DNA from: Pseudomonadota bacterium
Lineage (GTDB): Bacteria; Desulfobacterota; Desulfobacteria; Desulfobacterales; JBDRRP01
Assembly (NCBI GenBank): GCA_043825735.1
Contig: JBDRRP010000139.1
Coordinates: 1-64,000, forward strand
Direction: 5' to 3'
Length of the DNA stretch: 64,000 bases
Position 1 is the first letter of the stretch, and each line of letters starts with the position of its first letter. Positions 5,913-51,268 of this stretch are shown one piece after another. The position numbers and the translations under genes are program-made. The notes beneath the pieces were generated by a model, which did not search any database, was not told the DNA's origin, and worked only from the letters and a program-made list of their open reading frames with translations.

Positions 5913-7490
5913 TTGCCTATTGCGTCTGCAGCAGATGCGGCGGAATCGTCTTGCAAACGCAGGGCAATGGGCCTAAATGTGCGCCAGATGAAAATGATCC
6001 AGCCGGAAGCCGGGATGGCATCAGGGTATCGGCCCGATGGGCCACAGGGCGGGAGCGCTTTTGGAGAAGGTGCGGCGATGACGGTCTCGTTTTTTGAAAA
6101 GGAACGGCAACGGGAGCGGATTGCCGAAAATCTGGTCGAATTCGGTGAGCGCGGTGCTGACCTTAACTGGGTGAGCGGTGTCCGGGCGCAGACGGCGGAA
6201 GCCGAGCGGGCGCGCCTGCTGGGGGTCGTGGGTGATGCGGTCACGATGACCCATCGCCAGAGCAAACCGCACCTGGGGCCCTTGTCGCCGGGCTGCCGTA
6301 TTTGTGGTGAGGGGGCGTGGTCCTGCCTGTTTATCAATGGCAGCTGCAACTGCCGGTGCTTCTACTGCCCGACCGCCCAGGACGACATTTCGGTGCCGAC
6401 AACGAACCGGATCCCTTTCGACGAGGCCTCCGATTACGCCGATTATGTCAGGCATTTCGGCTTTACCGGCGCGAGCATCAGCGGCGGGGAGCCGCTGATG
6501 ACCCTTGGGCGGTCCCTCCGCTATATTCGGACCCTGCGTCATCGCCTGGGGCCCGGCCTGCACATCTGGCTATACACCAATGGTACCCTGCTGACGGCCG
6601 AAACCGTATCACGGCTCAAGGACGCCGGCCTGGATGAGATCCGATTCGACATCAGTGCGGCCGCTTACAGCCTGAAGCCGATCGGGCTTGCTGCCGGTCG
6701 AATTCCGGTCGTGACGGTGGAAATTCCGGCCATACCAGAAGACAGCGAATCACTTATAAAACTACTGCCGGCGTTGCGCGATGCCGGTGTCGATCATCTC
6801 AACCTTCATCAATTGCGGATTACACCGCACAACAGCGCCAACCTGGCAGCGCGCCCCTACACATTTCTCCACGGTGAGCGCGTGACCGTGCTGGAATCCG
6901 AACTGACCGCGCTGAAGCTCTTGGCCGCTGCCGCGGTCCAGAACATCGGCCCGCCCATCAATTATTGTTCATTTGTGTACAAGTACCGCTGCCAGCGGGC
7001 AGCGGTGCGGGGCCGCACGGCAGCGCTGATTTGCAAAGGCCATGAAGGAATCACTGAAAACGGGTACATCCGGCAGCTTGCCCTGTGCGGGCCGGCTGAC
7101 CAGATACGCCGTCAGGTAGATCGGCTGGTTACCCACGGCGTCGATCCTGCCCTGTGGTCGGCATCCGGAAAGGTGGATCGCCTCGCGTTTCACGAAACCC
7201 AGTGGCCGATGGTCGAGGATGCCGGCTGCACGGTGACCGTGAGCTATTCTCAGGCCGTTTTGCAGGCGCATGTGTCCTATCGGTGTGCGTTTACGGAGGT
7301 GCGGGTAGGCAGTGGCATGAAGCTTTTCATTGAAAAACAGCCGGTGTGCATGGCCCGCGTGCTCGGTGCCGAGGCCCAGCGATTGCTCAAAGGGTTGATT
7401 CGGGGATGCCCGGAGGAAAGCGGCTGGGCTGAAAACGAGACCATTGCCGGCTACGAGTGTATTTACCCGGGGCTTCAGGATTACTATTAA
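5913..7490 (+). CDS. radical SAM domain protein, activase-like, with an extra upstream Cys pair and a long C-terminal extension
   Basis: CNCRCFYC matches the CxxxCxxC motif. It is preceded by CRICGEGAWSC and followed by SISGGEPLM (SAM-binding GGE). The true start may be an internal Met (for example MTVSFF or MTHRQ). Confidence 0.7.
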   Translation: MPIASAADAAESSCKRRAMGLNVRQMKMIQPEAGMASGYRPDGPQGGSAFGEGAAMTVSFFEKERQRERIAENLVEFGERGADLNWVSGVRAQTAEAERARLLGVVGDAVTMTHRQSKPHLGPLSPGCRICGEGAWSCLFINGSCNCRCFYCPTAQDDISVPTTNRIPFDEASDYADYVRHFGFTGASISGGEPLMTLGRSLRYIRTLRHRLGPGLHIWLYTNGTLLTAETVSRLKDAGLDEIRFDISAAAYSLKPIGLAAGRIPVVTVEIPAIPEDSESLIKLLPALRDAGVDHLNLHQLRITPHNSANLAARPYTFLHGERVTVLESELTALKLLAAAAVQNIGPPINYCSFVYKYRCQRAAVRGRTAALICKGHEGITENGYIRQLALCGPADQIRRQVDRLVTHGVDPALWSASGKVDRLAFHETQWPMVEDAGCTVTVSYSQAVLQAHVSYRCAFTEVRVGSGMKLFIEKQPVCMARVLGAEAQRLLKGLIRGCPEESGWAENETIAGYECIYPGLQDYY

Positions 7491-7567
7491 ACGGCGGCCG
7501 CCGACGAAGGCATGCCAAGGCATGTCTCATCGGTAATCGGCCACCGTTTGTCCCATCATATGGCGTC

Positions 7568-7909
7568 TTAGGCTTTACGCAGAGAAATCCCGGATTTGGT
7601 TTTTCTGATGGCGAAAGCATCGCCTTCCACAAAGCCCATTTCCTCGACAAGGATTTTGGTGATGACCAGACTGCCGCGTTTGTTTACGGTCGCTACTTTG
7701 CTCACGGCTGCCTTTGCCGGCGTCTTTCGACCCTTTTTGATTTCCGGAACGGTGCCGGCTGCCATCAGTGCGTTCGCATAGGCCACTTTCAGCTGCGTGG
7801 GCGTTTTAAGCCCGAGTTTTTCCATGATTGCTTTTTGGGCTACGCCATCTTGAACCATGGCCAAAAGCGCTTTCTCATCAATGCTCTTTTTCTTCGGCAT
7901 GATCATCAA
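7568..7909 (-). CDS. small AbrB/MazE/SpoVT-type (swapped-hairpin) DNA-binding protein
   Basis: C-terminal KRGSLVITKILVEEMGFVEGDAFAIRKTKSGISL resembles the AbrB-N looped-hinge motif. Confidence 0.5.
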   Translation of the reverse strand: MMIMPKKKSIDEKALLAMVQDGVAQKAIMEKLGLKTPTQLKVAYANALMAAGTVPEIKKGRKTPAKAAVSKVATVNKRGSLVITKILVEEMGFVEGDAFAIRKTKSGISLRKA

Positions 7910-8456
7910 CTCCTCTCATAAATCGCGTTATAGGGAAATACATGGTGCGATGTCGTTATTGACAATTTTAATTGCAATTTTCGACTACAGGATCAAATAA
8001 TCCAAACGTGTTATGAGGTCAATTAAAAATTTAACTTTTCGTGTATGGTGCGAAAAAATGATTTTGAAAAATGCTATTTCCTTTTTGATACGGATTGGTT
8101 TCGCTCGAATATTTGCTAAATAAAAATGTGATATGGTATCGATGGCAGATCAAATGAAAGATCGATATTGAGCATGAAAACAGCGAAGGCGTGCATATTT
8201 GAATCCATTGTATGCGTTGTTGGAAATCTGTAGAAAGATGATTTTACAACCGGAATCTTTGTCGGATAAATTGTGAAAATTATGGCAATAAGGGATATGA
8301 CTTTTCTTTTTCAGTGCCAAAACGAGTGCATATTGCGTTGCGATTGACGCCCTCAAATAGCGCCCTGTGTGCCTTGGCCCGCAAGGGGTTTTCAAAAATG
8401 GCGGATGCGGGGCCAACCGGCGCAGCGTCAATAATCAGATTGTGTGCGTTTAAAAA

Positions 8457-9083
8457 GTGTGGTCGGCGATGATGAATATGAAGGAAAAAGAAGAAAGACT
8501 GAAAGGGATATATGCCGCATACGATGCGGTGGCGGCAGCATTCAAGACGGTTGCTGCCTGCTTCAAAGGCTGCGCATTTTGTTGTACCGATGCCGGCAGC
8601 ATCGACATTACAACGCTTGAGGGGGTGGTCATCCAAAACGCTCTTTCGCGCCGGCCTCGCGGCAGACAGACGGGGCTTAAGAAAACGCTGGCGGTTGACA
8701 TGAAACGGCGGCTGGCCGGAAAAACATCGGTCTGCCCGTTTCTTATGAAAAACCGAGTCTGTGAGATATACCCGGTCCGCCCTTTTTCGTGCCGGCGGAT
8801 CTATTCCCTGCACATGTGCACTCACGATGCCCCGCCCGTGGTCAGCCGACAGGCGATGGCTGCTGCTGCTGTGACCATTGGCGAGCTGCAGCGGCTCGAC
8901 GACACGGGCTATTCCGGTCATCTTTCCAGTATTCTTTTCATGCTCGATCAGCCCAGGTTTCTGGCCACTTATCAGTCCGGCGCTTTTCGTCCTGAAGAAA
9001 TCGTTGCGTTCGGAAAAACGCACAGGATTGTCATCAACCGAATGGCCGCCGGCGCACCGCCTCGATCGGAGCCGGCATCATGA
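8457..9083 (+). CDS. YkgJ/UPF0153-like putative Fe-S or zinc-chelating domain protein
   Basis: Cys clusters CFKGCAFCC and CPF...C..IY...PFSC resemble the CxxCxxCC family. Confidence 0.5.
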   Translation: MWSAMMNMKEKEERLKGIYAAYDAVAAAFKTVAACFKGCAFCCTDAGSIDITTLEGVVIQNALSRRPRGRQTGLKKTLAVDMKRRLAGKTSVCPFLMKNRVCEIYPVRPFSCRRIYSLHMCTHDAPPVVSRQAMAAAAVTIGELQRLDDTGYSGHLSSILFMLDQPRFLATYQSGAFRPEEIVAFGKTHRIVINRMAAGAPPRSEPAS

Positions 9084-9310
9084 GCGAGTATACAAGCACC
9101 GTTTTTGCCGGTTCATCATCTCTATGGGCTGTTTCTAAATTAGGATTTTGGTTCAAGGTCAAGGCGGCCGTGAGGTTTCAACCGGAGGATGTGGTGTATT
9201 TGCCTCGGTAACCAGGTGCTACGCACCGGGTTCCAGACGAACAGCACGAGGATTGAAACCGATCGCCCAACGCAGAGATTGGGCCAACAGACAATTTAGA
9301 AAAACAGCCC

Positions 9311-9955
9311 CTAGTAAAAGCTTGTAATTTTTGAGTCCGGCCAGCGGCTTCGATTATCCTGTGGGGGCGGCGACGGGATAGGCAGAATGGGGACATCGCA
9401 AAGCGGGGCGCCCACAAGGTACCTAATTAGGCGCGTGCTCTCGATCCAGCAGTGGACATCCGTTTCAAGATCAATGGTCCAACCTGCCAGACCGAACTGG
9501 TGGCAGATGACACGGCTCCCGGGTTTGAGACGTTTGAGGCGTTCCTGGAGCTTTTCGATGATCTCTGGCATCAGGTAGAGAAACACCACATCGGCTTCGG
9601 AGATATCCACGCTCAGGAGGTTTTTTCGGATCAGCCGAACCGGTGTCCGCCACAAGCGGCACCGAAGCCATGCCAGCGCCAGCAGGGCGCTGGAGAGATC
9701 GATGCCCGTGGCGATGGCCCTGAATTTTTGAACCGCGGGGATAAGGAGGCGTCCATCACCGCAGCCGAGATCATAGACTTTTTCGCCGGGCTGGATGGCC
9801 GCCATGGTCAGCATGGCCCTGACGACAGCGCGGGGGCTGCCGAGATAGAGAACCCCACCGCGGATGAGGCAGATGGTGGAGAAAACCAGGAGCAGTGCGG
9901 CCAAGCTGAAGACGACCGTTATAATGGCGACGAAGAGATCAGGGCCCATGGCCAC
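9311..9955 (-). CDS. class I SAM-dependent methyltransferase with an N-terminal transmembrane segment
   Basis: Motif I VYDLGCGDGRLL and a hydrophobic N-terminus. The C-terminal 40 aa are low-complexity and may be read-through. Confidence 0.6.
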   Translation of the reverse strand: MAMGPDLFVAIITVVFSLAALLLVFSTICLIRGGVLYLGSPRAVVRAMLTMAAIQPGEKVYDLGCGDGRLLIPAVQKFRAIATGIDLSSALLALAWLRCRLWRTPVRLIRKNLLSVDISEADVVFLYLMPEIIEKLQERLKRLKPGSRVICHQFGLAGWTIDLETDVHCWIESTRLIRYLVGAPLCDVPILPIPSPPPQDNRSRWPDSKITSFY

Positions 9956-10224
9956 CTCCGAAAGAAACCAGATATTCCGGTTTACACGCTATAACGCTTT
10001 CGGCGCCGTTGCAGAAATGTGCGGGCAACGGCAGGCGGCGCCTGGCCCAGCAGGACCCGTAGCTATGTTTTTATCGATCCTACCCCGAATCGACAGGCAT
10101 CCACAATCGCAAAGTGTCCGGGGCCCCAAAAAACGTCATCCGCGCGCGGCCAAATATTTTACGATTGTCTATTGGGCCTTTAACCCAAAAGGGTTATGAC
10201 TGGCCTTTCGAAAGGAACGATATC

Positions 10225-10986
10225 ATGCTCAAAGCGGTGCTGCTGGATTTGGACAACACCTTGATTCTTTTTGATGAGCCGGGATTCTATCAGCGGTTTT
10301 TCGACAAGATGGCGACCGCCTTCCATGACCTCATGCCGGCCGATCAGCTGGCCCGAAAGACCGTCGCGGCGACCGTGGCCCTTAAGGAAAACGACGGCCG
10401 GATGGTGAACCGGGACTGGTTCAACCAGGCCTTCACTGCGGATCAGGACCTGCCCATGCATCGCTTTTGGGACCGCTGGCTGTCGTTCTACCGGGACACC
10501 TACGGCCCATTCGGCATACCGGTGACGGTGCCCCCCGGGCAGGCCGACACCATTGACCGCCTGGCACAAAGCGGGTTGACGCTTGCGATCGCGTCCAATC
10601 CCATTTTCCCCCGAATTGCGCTGGAACGGCGAATGGCCTGGGGCGGTCTTGATCCCGCACCTTTCGCCCTGCTGACTCATATGGACAACATGTCGTTCGT
10701 CAAGCCCCGAGAGGGGTACTACCGGAGCATCAGTGAAATGCTCGATGTGGCGCCGGAAACATGCCTCATGGTGGGAAACGACCCGGTCAATGACATGGCG
10801 GCTGCGGTGGCCGGCATGTCGACCTATTTGACCACTGACGGCAGAGAAAGCGACTTCACCAGCCTAACGGCCGGCGCCGGGGCGGCAGCTCCTTATATTC
10901 CCGATTTCAGCGGGCCGTTGTCAGGAGTGCTGGATGTGGTGGCGCGTTTGCAGAACGGACACGGGCCCGGTGCCGAAGGGGCGTAA
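10225..10986 (+). CDS. HAD-superfamily hydrolase
   Basis: LLDLDNTL (DxDxT) at the N-terminus, a later VGNDPVNDM motif, and an AAAGGAA RBS. Confidence 0.75.
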   Translation: MLKAVLLDLDNTLILFDEPGFYQRFFDKMATAFHDLMPADQLARKTVAATVALKENDGRMVNRDWFNQAFTADQDLPMHRFWDRWLSFYRDTYGPFGIPVTVPPGQADTIDRLAQSGLTLAIASNPIFPRIALERRMAWGGLDPAPFALLTHMDNMSFVKPREGYYRSISEMLDVAPETCLMVGNDPVNDMAAAVAGMSTYLTTDGRESDFTSLTAGAGAAAPYIPDFSGPLSGVLDVVARLQNGHGPGAEGA

Positions 10987-46149: not shown

Positions 46150-47652
46150 GTGCCTGTTGACACGGTTTGGATCGATGAATGTCTGAGCAAGAGAGGCGGC
46201 CATCTTTGGATCGAAGAAATCGATACTGTGCACATTGCCGCCGAATACGGCACCCCGGTCTTCGTTATTTCAGAAAACCAGCTTCGCCGAAATGTACGAC
46301 GATTTCAGAAATCCTTTCAGGCCGGCTGGCCCGACGGTCCGGTGAAAGTACTGCCAGCCGCCAAGGCCAACTGGATCACCGCCGTTCAGAAGATTCTGGC
46401 CCAGGAAGGCTGCGGGTGCGACATCTACTCCGAGGGCGAACTGGCCGTTGCTCTTTCCGCCGGGTTCGCCCATGATCTCATCTCGGTCAACGGGGTGCCC
46501 AAGGCGCCCGATCATATCTACCGTGCCATCAAGGAGGGCTGCCGCATTACCATCGACAGTATGGAGGAGGTGGACGTCATAGAGCGGGCCGCTCGCGATC
46601 TTGACACCACCGCCTTCGTGCGGCTGCGTCTTAAACCGGTGCTCTCTGATTTCGTAAAGTCCAGCGATTTCGCCGCCGAAGGCCTGGTGCCCACGGATCT
46701 GGCCGCCATCGTTTACAAAGGCGGACTCATGTTCGAGCATATTCGGGAAATCGCCCCCCGCATCCTTAAGATGAAGAATGTGGAACTGGTTGGTTTTCAC
46801 CAGCACCACGGCCGCCACAACCGCAGTACCGCCTACTGGCGGGCCCAGATGACGGCCTTCGCCCATGAAATCGGCCGGGTGTCAGCGCTCTTGGGCGGCT
46901 ATCAGCCCAGGGAAATCGATATCGGCGGCGGCTTTGCCATCCCAAGGGACCCCTTTAACGCCGCCACCGACTACACCGAACCGGCGCAGTTGGCGGCGCT
47001 GCACACCATCAGCACGGCCCTGAAGGCTTTTGCCCCGGATCTGCGCTACAAGGTGTTGGCGCCGCTGGTCAACACCATTACGATGCGCCCCAACAAACGG
47101 CGCGCGCCCACCATCGAGCAGTATGCCGCAGCGTGCACCGGCACCCTCCGACAAGAACTTCCCAATCATGGTATCGATACAAAAGGCCTCATGCTTCAAC
47201 TGGAGCCGGGCCGGGCCATGCACGGTGACACGGGCATCCACCTGACCCGGGTCATGGCCATCAAGCGCATCAGCTCGCCGGTGCGCTGGAACCAGGTCAT
47301 CGTGGATTCTACCGAATTCTGGTTCACCGGCGGTCGCTACGAGCACCACCTGCACGATTATCTTTTCGCCAACAAGGTAGATGCGGCATTCGAAGACAAA
47401 GCCGACATCAACGGACGGTCCTGCTACGGCGACCGGCTCATGCCGACCGTGCCGATTCCCTCAGACGTGGCGCCCGGCGATCTATTCGCGATGCTCGATA
47501 CCGCCGCCTATCAGGAGGTCTCCATGAGCCAGTTCAACGCTATGCCACGGCCGGGCACGCTATTGGTGACCGGTGACGTTGCATCTGTTATCCGGGAAGC
47601 CGAAAAACAGGAAATCGTGTTCCAAAGAGATCGGTTGCCTGAACATTTGTGA
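46150..47652 (+). CDS. PLP-dependent decarboxylase of the Orn/DAP/Arg decarboxylase (fold III, LysA-like) family
   Basis: GTPVFVISE, an alanine-racemase-like N-terminal barrel, GFHQHHG and IDIGGGF. GTG start after a GGAGGA RBS. Confidence 0.75.
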   Translation: MPVDTVWIDECLSKRGGHLWIEEIDTVHIAAEYGTPVFVISENQLRRNVRRFQKSFQAGWPDGPVKVLPAAKANWITAVQKILAQEGCGCDIYSEGELAVALSAGFAHDLISVNGVPKAPDHIYRAIKEGCRITIDSMEEVDVIERAARDLDTTAFVRLRLKPVLSDFVKSSDFAAEGLVPTDLAAIVYKGGLMFEHIREIAPRILKMKNVELVGFHQHHGRHNRSTAYWRAQMTAFAHEIGRVSALLGGYQPREIDIGGGFAIPRDPFNAATDYTEPAQLAALHTISTALKAFAPDLRYKVLAPLVNTITMRPNKRRAPTIEQYAAACTGTLRQELPNHGIDTKGLMLQLEPGRAMHGDTGIHLTRVMAIKRISSPVRWNQVIVDSTEFWFTGGRYEHHLHDYLFANKVDAAFEDKADINGRSCYGDRLMPTVPIPSDVAPGDLFAMLDTAAYQEVSMSQFNAMPRPGTLLVTGDVASVIREAEKQEIVFQRDRLPEHL

Positions 47653-47782
47653 GCGTAAGATTGAGGATACACTGAATGGTTATGATTAAACCTTGCGAAA
47701 TCACACAAAATGTTGATTTCAATGACTGTTCGTGTTGATATCGATGTCGTAGGTTTCACATTTAAATGGAGACAACCCGACG

Positions 47783-49291
47783 ATGCTTACCCGTCTTAAG
47801 ATTAACGGTTTTAAAAATTTGGTAGATGTGGATGTAAGGTTCGGCCCTTTCACATGCATTGCTGGCGCGAACGGGGTTGGCAAGTCAAACATGTTTGATG
47901 CAATACGATTTCTTGCAGCTCTATCCGACACAACCCTGCTTAACGCAGCTTTCTCAGTACGTGCGGAGGAAGGCAAGTCCCCAGATATCCGTGGGCTATT
48001 TCACCGTGCTGGCAAAAGCCATTCAGAGCGAATGCGATTTGAAGTTGAGATGATTGTCCCTCCAGAAGCGATAGATGATTTCGGGAAGAAAGGGACCGCT
48101 AAAATCACGTCACTTCGATATCTGCTTGAGCTTGCATACCGAAAACAAGAACCGTCTATGATGACAACGTTAGGGGGTGAACTCGAGATAGTTCGTGAGG
48201 AGTTGACTCATATACAGAAAGGCGCGGCAACCAAACATTTTTTGTTCCCGCACACCTTGCAATGGCGTGATTCTGCTATCACAGGGGCCTGTAGGTCACC
48301 GCTTATATCTACTGTTGGAGGAGAAGGCGGGCGAACATTAATCAAACTCCACCAAGATGGTAACAGGGGACGACCATCTCTCCATCCTGCTGACAATTTG
48401 CCTAGGACTGTGTTGTCTTCAGGGAATGCAAGTGAGAGCCCAACGGTATTATGTGCCAGGCGAGAAATGAGTTCTTGGAAGTTTTTACAATTGGAACCCT
48501 CGGCGCTCAGAAAACCGAGCGATTTCATTAGTCCAACACAAATCGGAACAGATGGTTTGAATTTGCCCAGTACCCTTTACCATCTTGCACGTTTAGCCCC
48601 GGAGCTTGGAATTGCAGCTGATGAAGATGCCGCCTATTGTCAAATTGCTAACAGATTGAGTGAATTAATTGGTAGTGTGGGATCAATCAGAGTAGATCGT
48701 GATGAAAAGCGAGAATTGTTTACTCTAATGCTTAAAGAGCTAAATGGGACAGAGTTGCCGGCAAGAGCTCTTTCAGATGGAACGCTTCGGTTTTTAGCTC
48801 TTGCAGTACTTGAAATGGATGGGCGGAGTGGTGAGGTTTTATGCCTTGAAGAGCCAGAAAACGGGATCCATCCAGAGCGAATTCCAGCAATAATCCGACT
48901 TCTTCAGGACATAAGCAGTGATGCAACAGATACGATTGATCCTACAAATCCATTGCGACAAGTAATAGTGAATACACACTCTCCGGCTGTTGTTAGTGAA
49001 GTCCCGGACGATTCACTGTTGGTGGCCGAGCTGGAAGAATCTGTAATTGGTAATGAAAAAATATCTCAGGCTCGTTTTAGCTGCTTGCCTGATACATGGA
49101 GAATGGATGCGATGGGAAAGCCAAATGTTATTGCTAGGGGAAAACTTCTATCCTATCTGAATCCAAACGCAATTAGTTATGATGGGAAAAGAGAGGGCGG
49201 TGCAGCAAGAGAAGGTGCTGTCAAGCGTAGGCGAAAGGTTCGCGAGCGAGATGACCTGCAACTTCTATTGCCGATGGAGTGCGAACAGTGA
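47783..49291 (+). CDS. ABC/AAA_21-type P-loop ATPase (SMC/RecF-like N-terminus), predicted ATPase subunit of a two-gene defence-like module
   Basis: Walker A AGANGVGKSN (MLTRLKINGFKNL start). Signature and Walker B context ALSDGTLRFLALAVL...VLCLEEPENGIHP. H-loop VNTHSP. Markedly lower G+C than the flanks. Confidence 0.75.
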   Translation: MLTRLKINGFKNLVDVDVRFGPFTCIAGANGVGKSNMFDAIRFLAALSDTTLLNAAFSVRAEEGKSPDIRGLFHRAGKSHSERMRFEVEMIVPPEAIDDFGKKGTAKITSLRYLLELAYRKQEPSMMTTLGGELEIVREELTHIQKGAATKHFLFPHTLQWRDSAITGACRSPLISTVGGEGGRTLIKLHQDGNRGRPSLHPADNLPRTVLSSGNASESPTVLCARREMSSWKFLQLEPSALRKPSDFISPTQIGTDGLNLPSTLYHLARLAPELGIAADEDAAYCQIANRLSELIGSVGSIRVDRDEKRELFTLMLKELNGTELPARALSDGTLRFLALAVLEMDGRSGEVLCLEEPENGIHPERIPAIIRLLQDISSDATDTIDPTNPLRQVIVNTHSPAVVSEVPDDSLLVAELEESVIGNEKISQARFSCLPDTWRMDAMGKPNVIARGKLLSYLNPNAISYDGKREGGAAREGAVKRRRKVRERDDLQLLLPMECEQ

Positions 49292-49923
49292 GTAGTTTTA
49301 GGTTTACTCTTGTTGCCGATGGACCATCAGATAGAGCATTGATGCCCATTCTAAAGAAATTGTGTAGCGATAACATTCTATCACCCATCCGTGGGGAATG
49401 GTTTGACCCTCGGCCCTTGGCTCCTCCCCGAATGGGGCTTAAGGATAGACTGGCGAGAGGCGTTCAGCTTTTCCCTTGCGATTTGTTGTTTGTGCATCGA
49501 GATGCTGAAACGAAAACAATTGCACAGAGGCGTGAAGAAATTAAACTGGCGATTGATGACATAGGGGAAGAGGTACATCGGATTCCTTATGTTTGCATAA
49601 TCCCGGTTAGAATGACTGAGGCTTGGCTAATTCTCGATGAGACAGCTATCCGGTTGGCCGCCGGCAATCCAAATGGCACTATGAGCCTTTTTCTGCCGCC
49701 AATAAATCGAGTGGAAAAGACTCCGGATCCCAAAAAAGTCTTGATAGAAGCGCTAAAGACAGCAAGCGGACTGCCCCCGCGACGCCAAAAGAAGTTGGAT
49801 ATTTCCCACCTCCGTGTTCGCGTCGCTGAATTGATAACGAACTACGAATTGTTGCAGCGTCTTTCAGCTTTCCGCGAGGTGGAGCGGAGCGTAAGGCAAT
49901 TTGCAAGTCAATGGAAAGCTTAA
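49279..49923 (+). CDS. small acidic partner protein with Toprim-like motifs (DUF4276/RloB-like), predicted nuclease/effector subunit
   Basis: Overlaps the ATPase gene by 13 nt. Acidic conserved positions TLVADGPSD, FVHRDAET, RMTEAWLILDE. About 214 aa. Confidence 0.55.
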   Translation: MRTVSSFRFTLVADGPSDRALMPILKKLCSDNILSPIRGEWFDPRPLAPPRMGLKDRLARGVQLFPCDLLFVHRDAETKTIAQRREEIKLAIDDIGEEVHRIPYVCIIPVRMTEAWLILDETAIRLAAGNPNGTMSLFLPPINRVEKTPDPKKVLIEALKTASGLPPRRQKKLDISHLRVRVAELITNYELLQRLSAFREVERSVRQFASQWKA

Positions 49924-49963
49924 GTAGAATAGATTCCATACAAAGTAAGAATCGGTAGGCGCA

Positions 49964-51268
49964 TCACCGTATCAGATCGGGCAGAAAGGTCACCACTGCG
50001 GGAAAGGCCATCATGATCAAAAGGCAGATCAGGTAGGCCGGCAGAAACCAGGCCACGCCGCGAAAGACGTCTTCCAGAGGCACGTCCCGGGCCATGCCGC
50101 CCACGACGAAGGTGGTGGCCCCCACCGGAGGGGTGACCGCCCCCAGGGTCGTTACCACCGTGATGGTCACGCCGAACCATATGGGATCGTAGCCCAGTTT
50201 GCTGGCCACCGGAAAGAAGATGGGGATGGTGATCAGCAGCAGGGCCAGGGCGTCCATCACCGCGCCGCCGATGATGAAGATGGTGAAGATGATTGCCATG
50301 ATCACCATCGGCGGGACCGGCAGCCCGACGACCCAGGTGGCAATGTCGTAGGGGATCCGGGTGACGGCCAGAAAGCGGCCGAATATCACGGCGCCGGCGA
50401 CGATCATGATTACCATGCACGAGATCCGCAGGGTCTCTTCCATGGCGGCCACTAGCCCTTTCAGGCTCAGGCGCCGCTGAACCGCGCCGATGAGCACGGC
50501 GAAAAAGGACCCGGCTGCGCCGGCTTCCGCCGGTGTAAAAAATCCCAGCGACAGCCCGAGCATCACCAGACCGAAGAGAAGGATCATTTCCATCGCACCG
50601 GTGAGGGACCGGATCTTATCCCGCAACGAGGCCCGGGGGCCGGCCGGTCCCCAGTCCGGGTGGATGCGGCAGATCACGGCCACCGAGAGCACCATCAGCA
50701 GGGCGAGAAGCCCTCCGGCACCGATGCCGCCGTAGAACAGACGGGCAATGGACTGCTCGGTGGACAGGCCGATGACGATCAGCACCACGCTGGGGGGGAT
50801 CACCACCCCCAGCGTCGATCCGCAGGCGATGGCCCCGGTGCCCAGTTTGGGGTTGTAGCGGTATTTTTTCATCTCCGGCAGGGCCACGGTGGTCATGGTG
50901 GCTGCCGTGGCTGCGTTTGACCCGCAGATGGCGGCAAAAGCGGCGCAGGCCATAACGGTGGCCATGGCCAGACCGCCGCGGATATGGCCCACCCACTGGT
51001 AGGCCGCCCGGTAGAGTTTTTCGTTGACGCCGCTGTGAAAGGCGATCTGACCCATGAGAATGAACAGCGGAATCACCGTGAGGCCGTATTTGGAGAAGGT
51101 TTCCCACAGGGCGGTGCCCAGCATGTTGAGCGCTGCCGGCAGGGAGATGATGTACCAGAAGCCGGCAAAGCCCACCATGGCCATGGCAAAGCCCACCGGT
51201 GTGCCGAGAAAGAACAGGATGAACAGCAGCGCCGCGATGCCGATGCCGCCGATGGCCGCCAGACTCAT
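49964..51268 (-). CDS. dctM: TRAP transporter large permease subunit
   Basis: Start MSLAAIGGIGIAALLFILFF. About 434 aa with multi-TM DctM-like sequence. The ORF-track 5' extension is non-coding-like. Confidence 0.85.
   Translation of the reverse strand: MSLAAIGGIGIAALLFILFFLGTPVGFAMAMVGFAGFWYIISLPAALNMLGTALWETFSKYGLTVIPLFILMGQIAFHSGVNEKLYRAAYQWVGHIRGGLAMATVMACAAFAAICGSNAATAATMTTVALPEMKKYRYNPKLGTGAIACGSTLGVVIPPSVVLIVIGLSTEQSIARLFYGGIGAGGLLALLMVLSVAVICRIHPDWGPAGPRASLRDKIRSLTGAMEMILLFGLVMLGLSLGFFTPAEAGAAGSFFAVLIGAVQRRLSLKGLVAAMEETLRISCMVIMIVAGAVIFGRFLAVTRIPYDIATWVVGLPVPPMVIMAIIFTIFIIGGAVMDALALLLITIPIFFPVASKLGYDPIWFGVTITVVTTLGAVTPPVGATTFVVGGMARDVPLEDVFRGVAWFLPAYLICLLIMMAFPAVVTFLPDLIR

Follow-up and report, generated by a model that had tools for sequence, protein, structure and literature searches.

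A free-standing HEC-01-type ATPase and DUF4276 gene pair, a candidate defense cassette, in a low-G+C insert from an uncultured sulfate-reducer-like bacterium

Closest described systems

Hma-embedded candidate 01 (HEC-01) was described by Payne et al. as an ABC ATPase associated with a TOPRIM protein, the metal site of which was aligned to that of Bp OLD, and was found embedded in Hma systems (10.1101/2024.01.29.577857). Here we report the analysis of two genes, A and B, that match the HEC-01 models and occupy positions 47653 to 49963 of a 64,000-nucleotide (nt) stretch of DNA, referred to as the window (positions 1 to 64,000 of contig JBDRRP010000139.1, assembly GCA_043825735.1). The pair was originally predicted to be a two-gene candidate antiphage module, and we compare it below with the systems that it most resembles.

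PARIS provides the best mechanistic analogy. It is also a split pair comprising an ATPase of the same broad clade and a Toprim protein. In PARIS, the AriA scaffold releases the AriB tRNase (PMC11464382). AriB is a DUF4435 protein, whereas gene B had no DUF4435 or AriB match in Pfam or PADLOC (E≤1). PARIS is often borne by phages or satellites, whereas the family of the window pair is nearly absent from viral collections. In the OLD proteins (P2 Old, classes 1 and 2) and in Gabija GajA, the ATPase and Toprim domains are part of a single polypeptide instead of being encoded by two open reading frames (ORFs) as in the window, and sequence similarity to gene A is limited to motifs. P2 Old is a tRNase switched on by destabilization of its tetramer (10.64898/2026.07.10.737580). 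Gabija additionally comprises the GajB helicase, which has no counterpart in the neighborhood of the pair, and the match of GajA to gene A is partial (1e-13).

The AbiL and Menshen systems resemble the pair in combining an AAA_15/21 ATPase with a partner of the Toprim superfamily, and some Menshen NsnC proteins use a DUF4276 effector domain (PMC12065111). They differ by their weaker matches to gene A (AbiLi, 5.5e-18; NsnB, 1.8e-13), by the lack of an RloB match for gene B, and by the lack of NsnA or NsnC genes at the window locus. Both AbiL and "MADS3-4" have been counted among the systems that combine an ABC ATPase with a TOPRIM protein (PMC11464382). In MADS, the likeness is with Mad3 and Mad4, an AAA_15/21 ATPase and its DUF4276 partner, and MAD3 is the best NCBIfam match of gene A (6.4e-41), but the score of 140.9 bits is far from the equivalog cutoff of 420. 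In addition, no other mad gene is located near the pair, which is flanked by genes for a decarboxylase and a TRAP transporter. In the published MADS model, MAD6, MAD7, and MAD8 are mandatory, whereas MAD3 and MAD4 are accessory and are not reliably detected everywhere; deletion of mad3 or mad4 weakens phage resistance, and mad5 can be deleted only along with mad2 or mad3 (10.1101/2023.03.30.534895). The pair thus falls outside PARIS, Gabija, OLD, AbiL, Menshen, and MADS. The parallels initially drawn with these systems hold for the ATPase motifs shared with OLD and GajA and for the pairing of an ATPase with a separate Toprim-type partner seen in PARIS and AbiL but do not extend to membership in any of them.

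Assignment of the gene pair to HEC-01

The two genes identified in the ORF list are as follows, in agreement with the original prediction for gene A and for the end of gene B.

47783..49291, plus strand: gene A, ABC ATPase of the AAA_15/21 (OLD-like) clade, HEC-01A type, 502 amino acids (aa)
49288..49923, plus strand: gene B, divergent DUF4276 protein, Toprim-like putative nuclease, HEC-01B type, 211 aa

Comparison with the PADLOC-DB models revealed that gene A matches the HEC-01A model PDLC04184 (1.6e-98, 328.8 bits; residues 1 to 410 on positions 1 to 397 of the 464 of the model) and that gene B matches the HEC-01B model PDLC04210 (2.7e-23; residues 9 to 207 on positions 6 to 207 of 217). 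Three additional HEC-01B models matched gene B with values of 1e-9 to 1e-12. The arrangement is also that of HEC-01, i.e., an ABC ATPase gene followed by a small TOPRIM-like gene, adjacent and on the same strand, with an overlap of 4 nt in the window. The next PADLOC matches of gene A were far weaker, to AriA-labeled profiles (7e-30) and to mad3 (6.4e-28), ahead of the AbiLi, GajA, and NsnB matches given above; the AriA-labeled profiles (lengths of 304 and 373) appear to be of a generic AAA_21/AAA_15 type.

The window pair differs in three respects from described HEC-01 members. Gene A has its own C-terminal extension of ca. 90 aa beyond the match to the model. The acidic signature of B contains an Asp in motif I and D-A-E in motif II, versus Glu and D-A-D in the core HEC-01 pair of scaffold MT836135.1 (locus L114). 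Finally, the pair is free-standing, flanked by metabolic and transport genes, whereas HEC-01 in Hma is embedded. The core pair of L114, with its Glu/DxD signature, matched the HEC-01 models at 7.3e-136 and 2.5e-61 (PDLC04212), as compared to ca. 1e-98 and 1e-23 to 1e-26 for the window pair and a Nostoc relative. On sequence grounds, the A/B pair is of the HEC-01 type and belongs to a divergent branch. The prediction of a candidate defense module composed of an ATPase and a Toprim/DUF4276 protein is therefore borne out by the HEC-01A and HEC-01B matches, the defense role being proposed by analogy (see below). The original prediction could not assign a validated named system from the sequence; the PADLOC models name HEC-01, an already catalogued candidate.

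Gene A encodes an OLD-like ATPase

Gene A was matched above the cutoffs by the Pfam families AAA_21 (3.4e-30, 106.6 bits for a cutoff of 27) and AAA_15 (1.9e-17, 64.4 bits for a cutoff of 32.1). All of the motifs expected for an ABC-type ATPase were found where they had been predicted: the Walker A motif GANGVGKSN at residue 28 (G28-x-N30-x-x-G33-K34-S35), the ABC signature LSDGTLRFLAL at residue 330 (L330-S331-x-G333, spanning L330 to F337), the Walker B stretch LCLEEPENGIHP at residues 353 to 364 (including E356-E357-P-E359 and H363-P364), and the H-loop NTHSP at residue 397 (N397 to P401, including H399). The key residues of these motifs show complete or near-complete conservation across 120 homologues displaying 56 to 74% identity. 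The EPExxLHP and THS motifs are common to gene A, P2 Old (IDEPELYLHP...STHS), Thermus OLD, and GajA (IEEPEISLHR...STHS).

The N-terminal head of gene A also has a Pfam SMC_N match, and the NCBIfam models for RecF, RecN, SMC, UvrA, and transporters cover only the Walker A head, with at most 35 bits. The scores were 32.4 bits for RecF (cutoff, 172) and 17.4 bits for RecN (cutoff, 408), in both cases for the N-terminal head only, and at most 22 bits for transporter ATPases. These values uphold the proposal that gene A does not encode a housekeeping transporter, RecF, or RecN protein, AAA_21 and AAA_15 being above their cutoffs and the other families far below theirs. Comparison with the sequences of the PDB provided only motif-level matches, to UvrA, Thermus OLD, and the OLD protein of retron Eco8, and profile comparison of the gene A alignment with P2 Old matched only the Walker A head.

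The AlphaFold (AF2) model of gene A had a predicted local distance difference test score (pLDDT) of 88.7. The C-terminal tail, residues 466 to 502 (window positions 49178 to 49288), is predicted to be disordered (pLDDT <50), and it nonetheless contains five residues (R489, D491, L492, Q493, and P497) conserved in at least 90% of the 120 homologues. Short motifs that become folded on a partner typically show this pattern, and the tail is, speculatively, a candidate docking site for B.

Gene B displays a conserved Toprim-type signature

Residue numbers of gene B refer to the 214-aa form; 3 should be subtracted for the 211-aa form. Gene B is assigned to a divergent branch of DUF4276 (PF14103) because 83 of 120 of its relatives (43 to 54% identity) match this family at E≤1e-3. 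Eleven residues are invariant (F71, H73, R74, D75, R84, P109, M112, E114, W116, R125, and P140), and D14, G15, S17, D18, D68, E77, and E121 are conserved in at least 94% of the relatives. Among the acidic residues, D14 is present in 115, D18 in 118, E77 in 119, and D75 and E114 in all of the 120 sequences. The acidic positions that had looked invariant from a single sequence are accordingly highly conserved, with 96 to 100% for D14, D75, and E77.

The AlphaFold model (pLDDT of 92.9) comprises β1 (residues 7 to 12), α1, β2 (37 to 42), α2, β3 (69 to 73), α3, and β4 (104 to 108), followed by a helical domain (112 to 213). In this model, D14 and D18 are located after β1, the D75-A-E77 motif after β3, and E114 after β4; D68 is also conserved. 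DUF4276 has been placed in the Toprim superfamily, and the same source was used to place the Toprim Glu and DxD positions (PMC12065111). Gene B displays the Toprim-type signature, in which β1 is followed by an acidic residue and β3 by a DxD-type motif. Motif I reads TLVADGPSD in gene B versus LLIEGPSE in GajA. In a set of 268 relatives, motif I was DG.SD in 217 sequences and EG.SD or EG.TD in 20, and motif II was HRDAE in 224 and of the HRDxD form in 20 (HRDAD in 15, HRDSD in 3, and HRDED and HRDTD in one each). The canonical E...DxD combination was found in two relatives displaying 28 to 29% identity, encoded by a Burkholderia megaplasmid (FVLSGEGTSD...HRDAD) and by scaffold MT836135 (GLITEGPTD...HTDAD), both located after an AAA_21 ATPase gene. 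A large environmental HEC-01 branch with a variant signature, Asp for Glu in motif I and D-x-E for D-x-D in motif II, is thereby documented.

In automated fold searches, Toprim did not stand out as the fold of gene B. Foldseek searches against the PDB and BFVD retrieved nothing at E≤1e-3, and a profile of gene B searched against the sequences of the PDB provided only a spurious match to a designed repeat protein. The Toprim assignment is based on the signature and, in part, on the published structural assignments, and gene B is best regarded as a putative Toprim-like protein.

Start site of gene B and coupling to gene A

The start codon of gene B is most likely the GTG at 49288, rather than the GTG at 49279, which would result in a 214-aa protein. 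The GTG at 49288 overlaps the stop codon of gene A by 4 nt (GTGA) and is preceded, 8 nt upstream, by a GGAG sequence (49276 to 49279). Homologues of gene B start 3 to 4 residues ahead of the conserved R[YF]TL strand, in keeping with a start at 49288, and the gene call of an independent assembly (Logan) placed the start at the same position (211 aa). The overlap of 13 nt initially proposed, with a start at 49279, is thus replaced by one of 4 nt on the basis of the GGAG spacing, the homologue starts, and the independent gene call. Gene B is translationally coupled to gene A. In the NCBI annotation, gene B (ABIL58_26580) is 163 aa long and starts ca. 50 codons late, with the loss of the N-terminal β1 and acidic motif FTLVADGPSD; a by-product of our analysis is that the public annotation lacks the N-terminal catalytic motif.

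Boundaries and composition of the insert

The insert fills the gap between the convergent 3′ ends of the decarboxylase gene and dctM. The features other than genes A and B are as follows.

46150-47652, plus strand: gene of the ornithine/arginine decarboxylase type, 500 aa
47653..47782, plus strand: AT-rich leader of gene A, 130 nt, belonging to the low-G+C insert
47655..47662, plus strand: left copy of GTAAGAWT, a direct repeat of 8 nt, located 3 nt past the decarboxylase stop
49924..49963, no strand assigned: spacer of 40 nt, from the stop of gene B to the stop of dctM
49945..49952, plus strand: right copy of GTAAGAWT, 22 nt past the gene B stop
49964-51268 (as called), minus strand: dctM, convergent with the insert

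The segment from 47653 to 49963 is the lowest-G+C stretch within the window, with a G+C content of 0.463 versus a mean of 0.589 for the other 2,311-bp windows (standard deviation, 0.031; minimum, 0.507; z = -4.1). The G+C content at third codon positions was 0.378 for gene A and 0.453 for gene B, versus 0.72 to 0.84 for seven neighboring genes, and the tetranucleotide distance of the segment to the rest of the window was 0.51, versus 0.21 on average and at most 0.32 in windows of equal size. The original prediction of a low-G+C insert with deviant codon usage was right, although the flanks, with a G+C content of ca. 0.59 to 0.65, fall short of the two-thirds that it had attributed to them.

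The genes within 10 kb on either side of the pair encode Fer4, the decarboxylase, DctMQP, an AMP-binding ligase, POR, ABM, and MarR proteins. The island context that had been proposed stands with respect to the foreign composition and the position amid housekeeping genes but not with respect to a defense island, as no other defense gene was found among the genes checked. The second-lowest G+C stretch of the window (7301 to 9611; G+C content of 0.507) contains an ORF with a CxxCxxCC domain and ORFs without Pfam match. A wider defense island was considered and rejected, as this stretch and the surrounding genes encode radical SAM, CxxCxxCC, methyltransferase, and HAD hydrolase proteins and bear no defense signature. 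Rfam and tRNA scans of the whole window provided no match, and because the tRNA scan was empty there is no tRNA integration site.

Distribution of homologues

Gene B had 2,389 matches among clusters at 90% identity, and a profile search retrieved 2,331 clusters at 50% identity (E≤1e-3), including 867 with E≤1e-30; gene A had at least 7,990 matches. The best identity to a sequence other than self was 74% for gene A and 55% for gene B, no close relative of either being known. The named hosts included Desulfosarcina ovata, Nostoc, Scytonema, Lentisphaeria, Armatimonadota, Kiritimatiellota, and Thermodesulfobacteriota. The A-then-B order was found in all six of the other homologous loci that contain B (L103, L105, L106, L107/L108, L113, and L114), with a 4-nt overlap or close spacing in D. 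ovata, Nostoc, the Burkholderia megaplasmid, and metagenome contigs. The A-B pairing is conserved down to 28% identity. The contexts of the homologous pairs are unrelated from one locus to the next and mostly of a housekeeping kind; the neighbors range from transposases and a diversity-generating retroelement to RND efflux, Dsr, and cyanobacterial housekeeping genes.

In the complete genome of D. ovata (L106; AP021879.1, 8001 to 10153), the pair has a G+C content of 0.47 versus 0.58 for the flanks, which suggests repeated recent transfers from donors of lower G+C content. At L103, the closest relative, which encodes a gene A product 74% identical to that of the window, the C-terminal portion of the ATPase is present in a second, truncated copy after the pair (10203 to 10778; residues 311 to 502, 65% identity), and the cassette adjoins several transposase genes.

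Only one relative (33% identity) was retrieved from IMG/VR, and the searches of phage and plasmid records retrieved 1 of 50,697 and 2 of 72,556 entries, respectively, both plasmids being large replicons (megaplasmids). Carriage by mobile elements as the usual lifestyle of the family was dropped in view of these results, which amount to a single distant viral contig, the two megaplasmids, and an unverified "phage" scaffold. In the sole phage record (L114; MT836135.1, "UNVERIFIED: Bacteriophage sp."), the core HEC-01 pair is located directly upstream of a full-length ruvB gene, and this scaffold may be a fragment of bacterial rather than phage origin.

Proposed function of the cassette

We consider it likely that the insert is a horizontally acquired, free-standing two-gene cassette of the HEC-01 type encoding an OLD-like ATPase and a DUF4276 protein with a Toprim signature. 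Our analysis establishes the family membership, the integrity of the conserved motifs, the conservation of the A-then-B pair, and the foreign composition. The defense function and its mechanism, in which an ATPase sensor would control a Toprim nuclease, are inferred from analogies with PARIS (AriA/AriB), P2 Old, Gabija, and MADS (Mad3/Mad4). In such a mechanism, an oligomer of the gene A product would keep the B nuclease inactive and serve as the sensor of a phage or foreign-DNA cue. An ATP-dependent rearrangement of A would free or activate B, which would in turn cut nucleic acid, either tRNA or DNA, and arrest the infected cell, leading to an abortive type of immunity.

The window provides a clean, recently acquired, free-standing example of HEC-01 in an uncultured sulfate-reducer-like lineage. 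The pair does not define a new category, as it would be picked up by PADLOC in routine use. HEC-01 occurs commonly in environmental metagenomes, and one of the two tests of this family was negative. To our knowledge, neither a solved structure nor a trigger or target has been described for any HEC-01 member. Minimal and well-delimited cassettes such as this one are reasonable candidates for biochemistry.

Several observations weigh against the assignment of the pair to a defense cassette of this type. With respect to gene B, the match to Pfam DUF4276 was below the gathering cutoff (16.8 bits versus 30.2; E value of 0.0084), NCBIfam provided no match, and hhalign of the gene B alignment against one P2 Old sequence returned a probability of 0.3%, a value that is uninformative. 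The original description of gene B as a Toprim-like protein of the DUF4276 or RloB kind is retained for the DUF4276 type, with a Pfam score below the cutoff, and for the acidic residues at Toprim positions; gene B has no RloB match. With respect to context, no further defense gene was found among the neighboring genes checked, and there is no guilt-by-association support because the family is nearly absent from phage and plasmid collections. Locus L104 carries a gene A (8001 to 9494; 74% identity) at the same genomic site as L103 and contains neither a B gene nor a remnant of it. An ORF of 453 aa on the minus strand, without Pfam match, comes after gene A at L104; the nuclease partner was either lost or replaced through insertion. 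Finally, the representative of HEC-01 tested by Payne et al. conferred no protection against any of the coliphages tested (10.1101/2024.01.29.577857). In favor of a defense role, a cold-seep study reports that another representative protected E. coli B from one or more of the phages T4, T5, and T7 (10.1101/2024.09.26.614923).

Alternative explanations

An unlikely variant of the proposal is that the Asp/DxE branch of HEC-01 works unlike PARIS, OLD, and Gabija. This notion stems from the invariant H73-R74 residues beside the catalytic Asp, the invariant R84 and R125 residues, and the conserved but disordered C-terminal tail of ca. 90 aa that belongs to the ATPase itself. It is possible in this case that the tail of the ATPase occludes the Toprim site until the trigger is sensed or, as another possibility, that the substrate is not bulk DNA but, for example, a specific tRNA or a nucleotide. 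If true, it would provide the first mechanism for a family that is widespread, gene B by itself accounting for 2,331 clusters at 50% identity.

The pair might also be a selfish addiction module, similar to toxin-antitoxin systems, or another nonimmune module, in which A would neutralize, in an ATP-dependent manner, the toxic nuclease B, and the selected trait would be maintenance of the cassette instead of phage defense. The failure of the representative of Payne et al. to protect fits this explanation, as does the location of the cassette alone amid housekeeping genes, without defense neighbors, and the deletion of mad5 only with mad2 or mad3 hints at toxicity linked to a Mad3-type ATPase. 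Conversely, the other HEC-01 representative protected against at least one phage, deletions of mad3 and mad4 reduce phage resistance, and few plasmid records contain the family (2 of 72,556), plasmids being the usual home of addiction modules. In addition, abortive infection and addiction are not mutually exclusive. On balance, we regard an addiction module as unlikely.

An inert or decaying passenger, or the remnant of a larger system of the Hma or MADS type that is inactive in the present host, is a further explanation, to which we give slightly less credit. It draws on the discovery of HEC-01 within Hma, on the accessory status of Mad3 and Mad4 in MADS, on the presence of A without B at L104 and of a truncated extra copy of A at L103, and on the lack of a recognizable promoter in the scan of the leader. 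However, both ORFs are intact and contain all of the residues that are invariant in the family, the coupling signal is also intact (GGAG and GTGA overlap), and free-standing pairs are the rule among the genomes sampled.

It is very unlikely that the pair is a native housekeeping module for DNA repair or recombination combining a RecF/RecN/SbcC-like ATPase and a Toprim nuclease: the N terminus of gene A does match the SMC_N, RecF, RecN, and UvrA heads, but these matches cover residues 1 to 50 only, far under the family cutoffs, whereas the best full-length matches are to defense-system models, the composition is strongly foreign, the pair is absent from all 101 loci containing a decarboxylase homologue, and its neighbors differ in each genome examined. 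Least probable of all is a chimera generated by assembly of the low-G+C segment, which could be envisioned since the source is a contig from a metagenome-assembled genome (MAG) and no second sample displays the same junctions, because the independent Logan assembly of the same sample (run SRR26275510) matches it with 100% identity over 13,718 bp, both junctions included, and the limits of the segment lie exactly within the intergenic gap that separates two intact, convergent genes.

Leader, spacer, and flanking sequences

The AT-rich leader contains a GGAG sequence at 47768 to 47771, 11 nt 5′ of the ATG of gene A. It also contains a 14-nt imperfect direct repeat, TGTTGATTTCAATG at 47711 to 47724 and TGTTGATATCGATG at 47733 to 47746, with starts 22 nt apart; this repeat could be an operator or promoter element. 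Scanning of the leader revealed no match to the sigma-70 consensus, promoter counts below the mean of the shuffles, and no Rfam match, and the counts of the promoter and terminator scans were not above those of the shuffles. In the spacer region, a weak terminator-like hairpin on the minus strand (49969 to 49953), the tail of which covers the right-hand GTAAGAAT, probably belongs to dctM.

The gtaagaWt string that had been noticed in both flanks does occur at 47655 and at 49945, but it is weak evidence: three matches to GTAAGAWT were found in the window for 1.13 expected, and at least three were reached in 12 of 100 shuffles. The pair of copies is, judged by sequence, suggestive at most of a target-site duplication. 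No direct or inverted repeats of at least 10 nt bracket the insert.

Searches for proteins identical to the decarboxylase and to DctM retrieved the same sample only. Homologues of the decarboxylase were recovered from 45 genome and 56 metagenome loci, the best being 82% identical, too distant for comparison with an empty site. None of these 101 loci is syntenic with the window, and in none of them are dctM, the Fer4 gene, or the A/B pair located near the decarboxylase homologue; the A/B pair is not linked to the decarboxylase. These homologues (60 to 82% identity; L002 to L102) are located in MAGs labeled Desulfobacterales, Anaerolineae, Gemmatimonadota, Acidobacteriota, and others. Either the decarboxylase gene also seems to be mobile or its surroundings seem to be very fluid.

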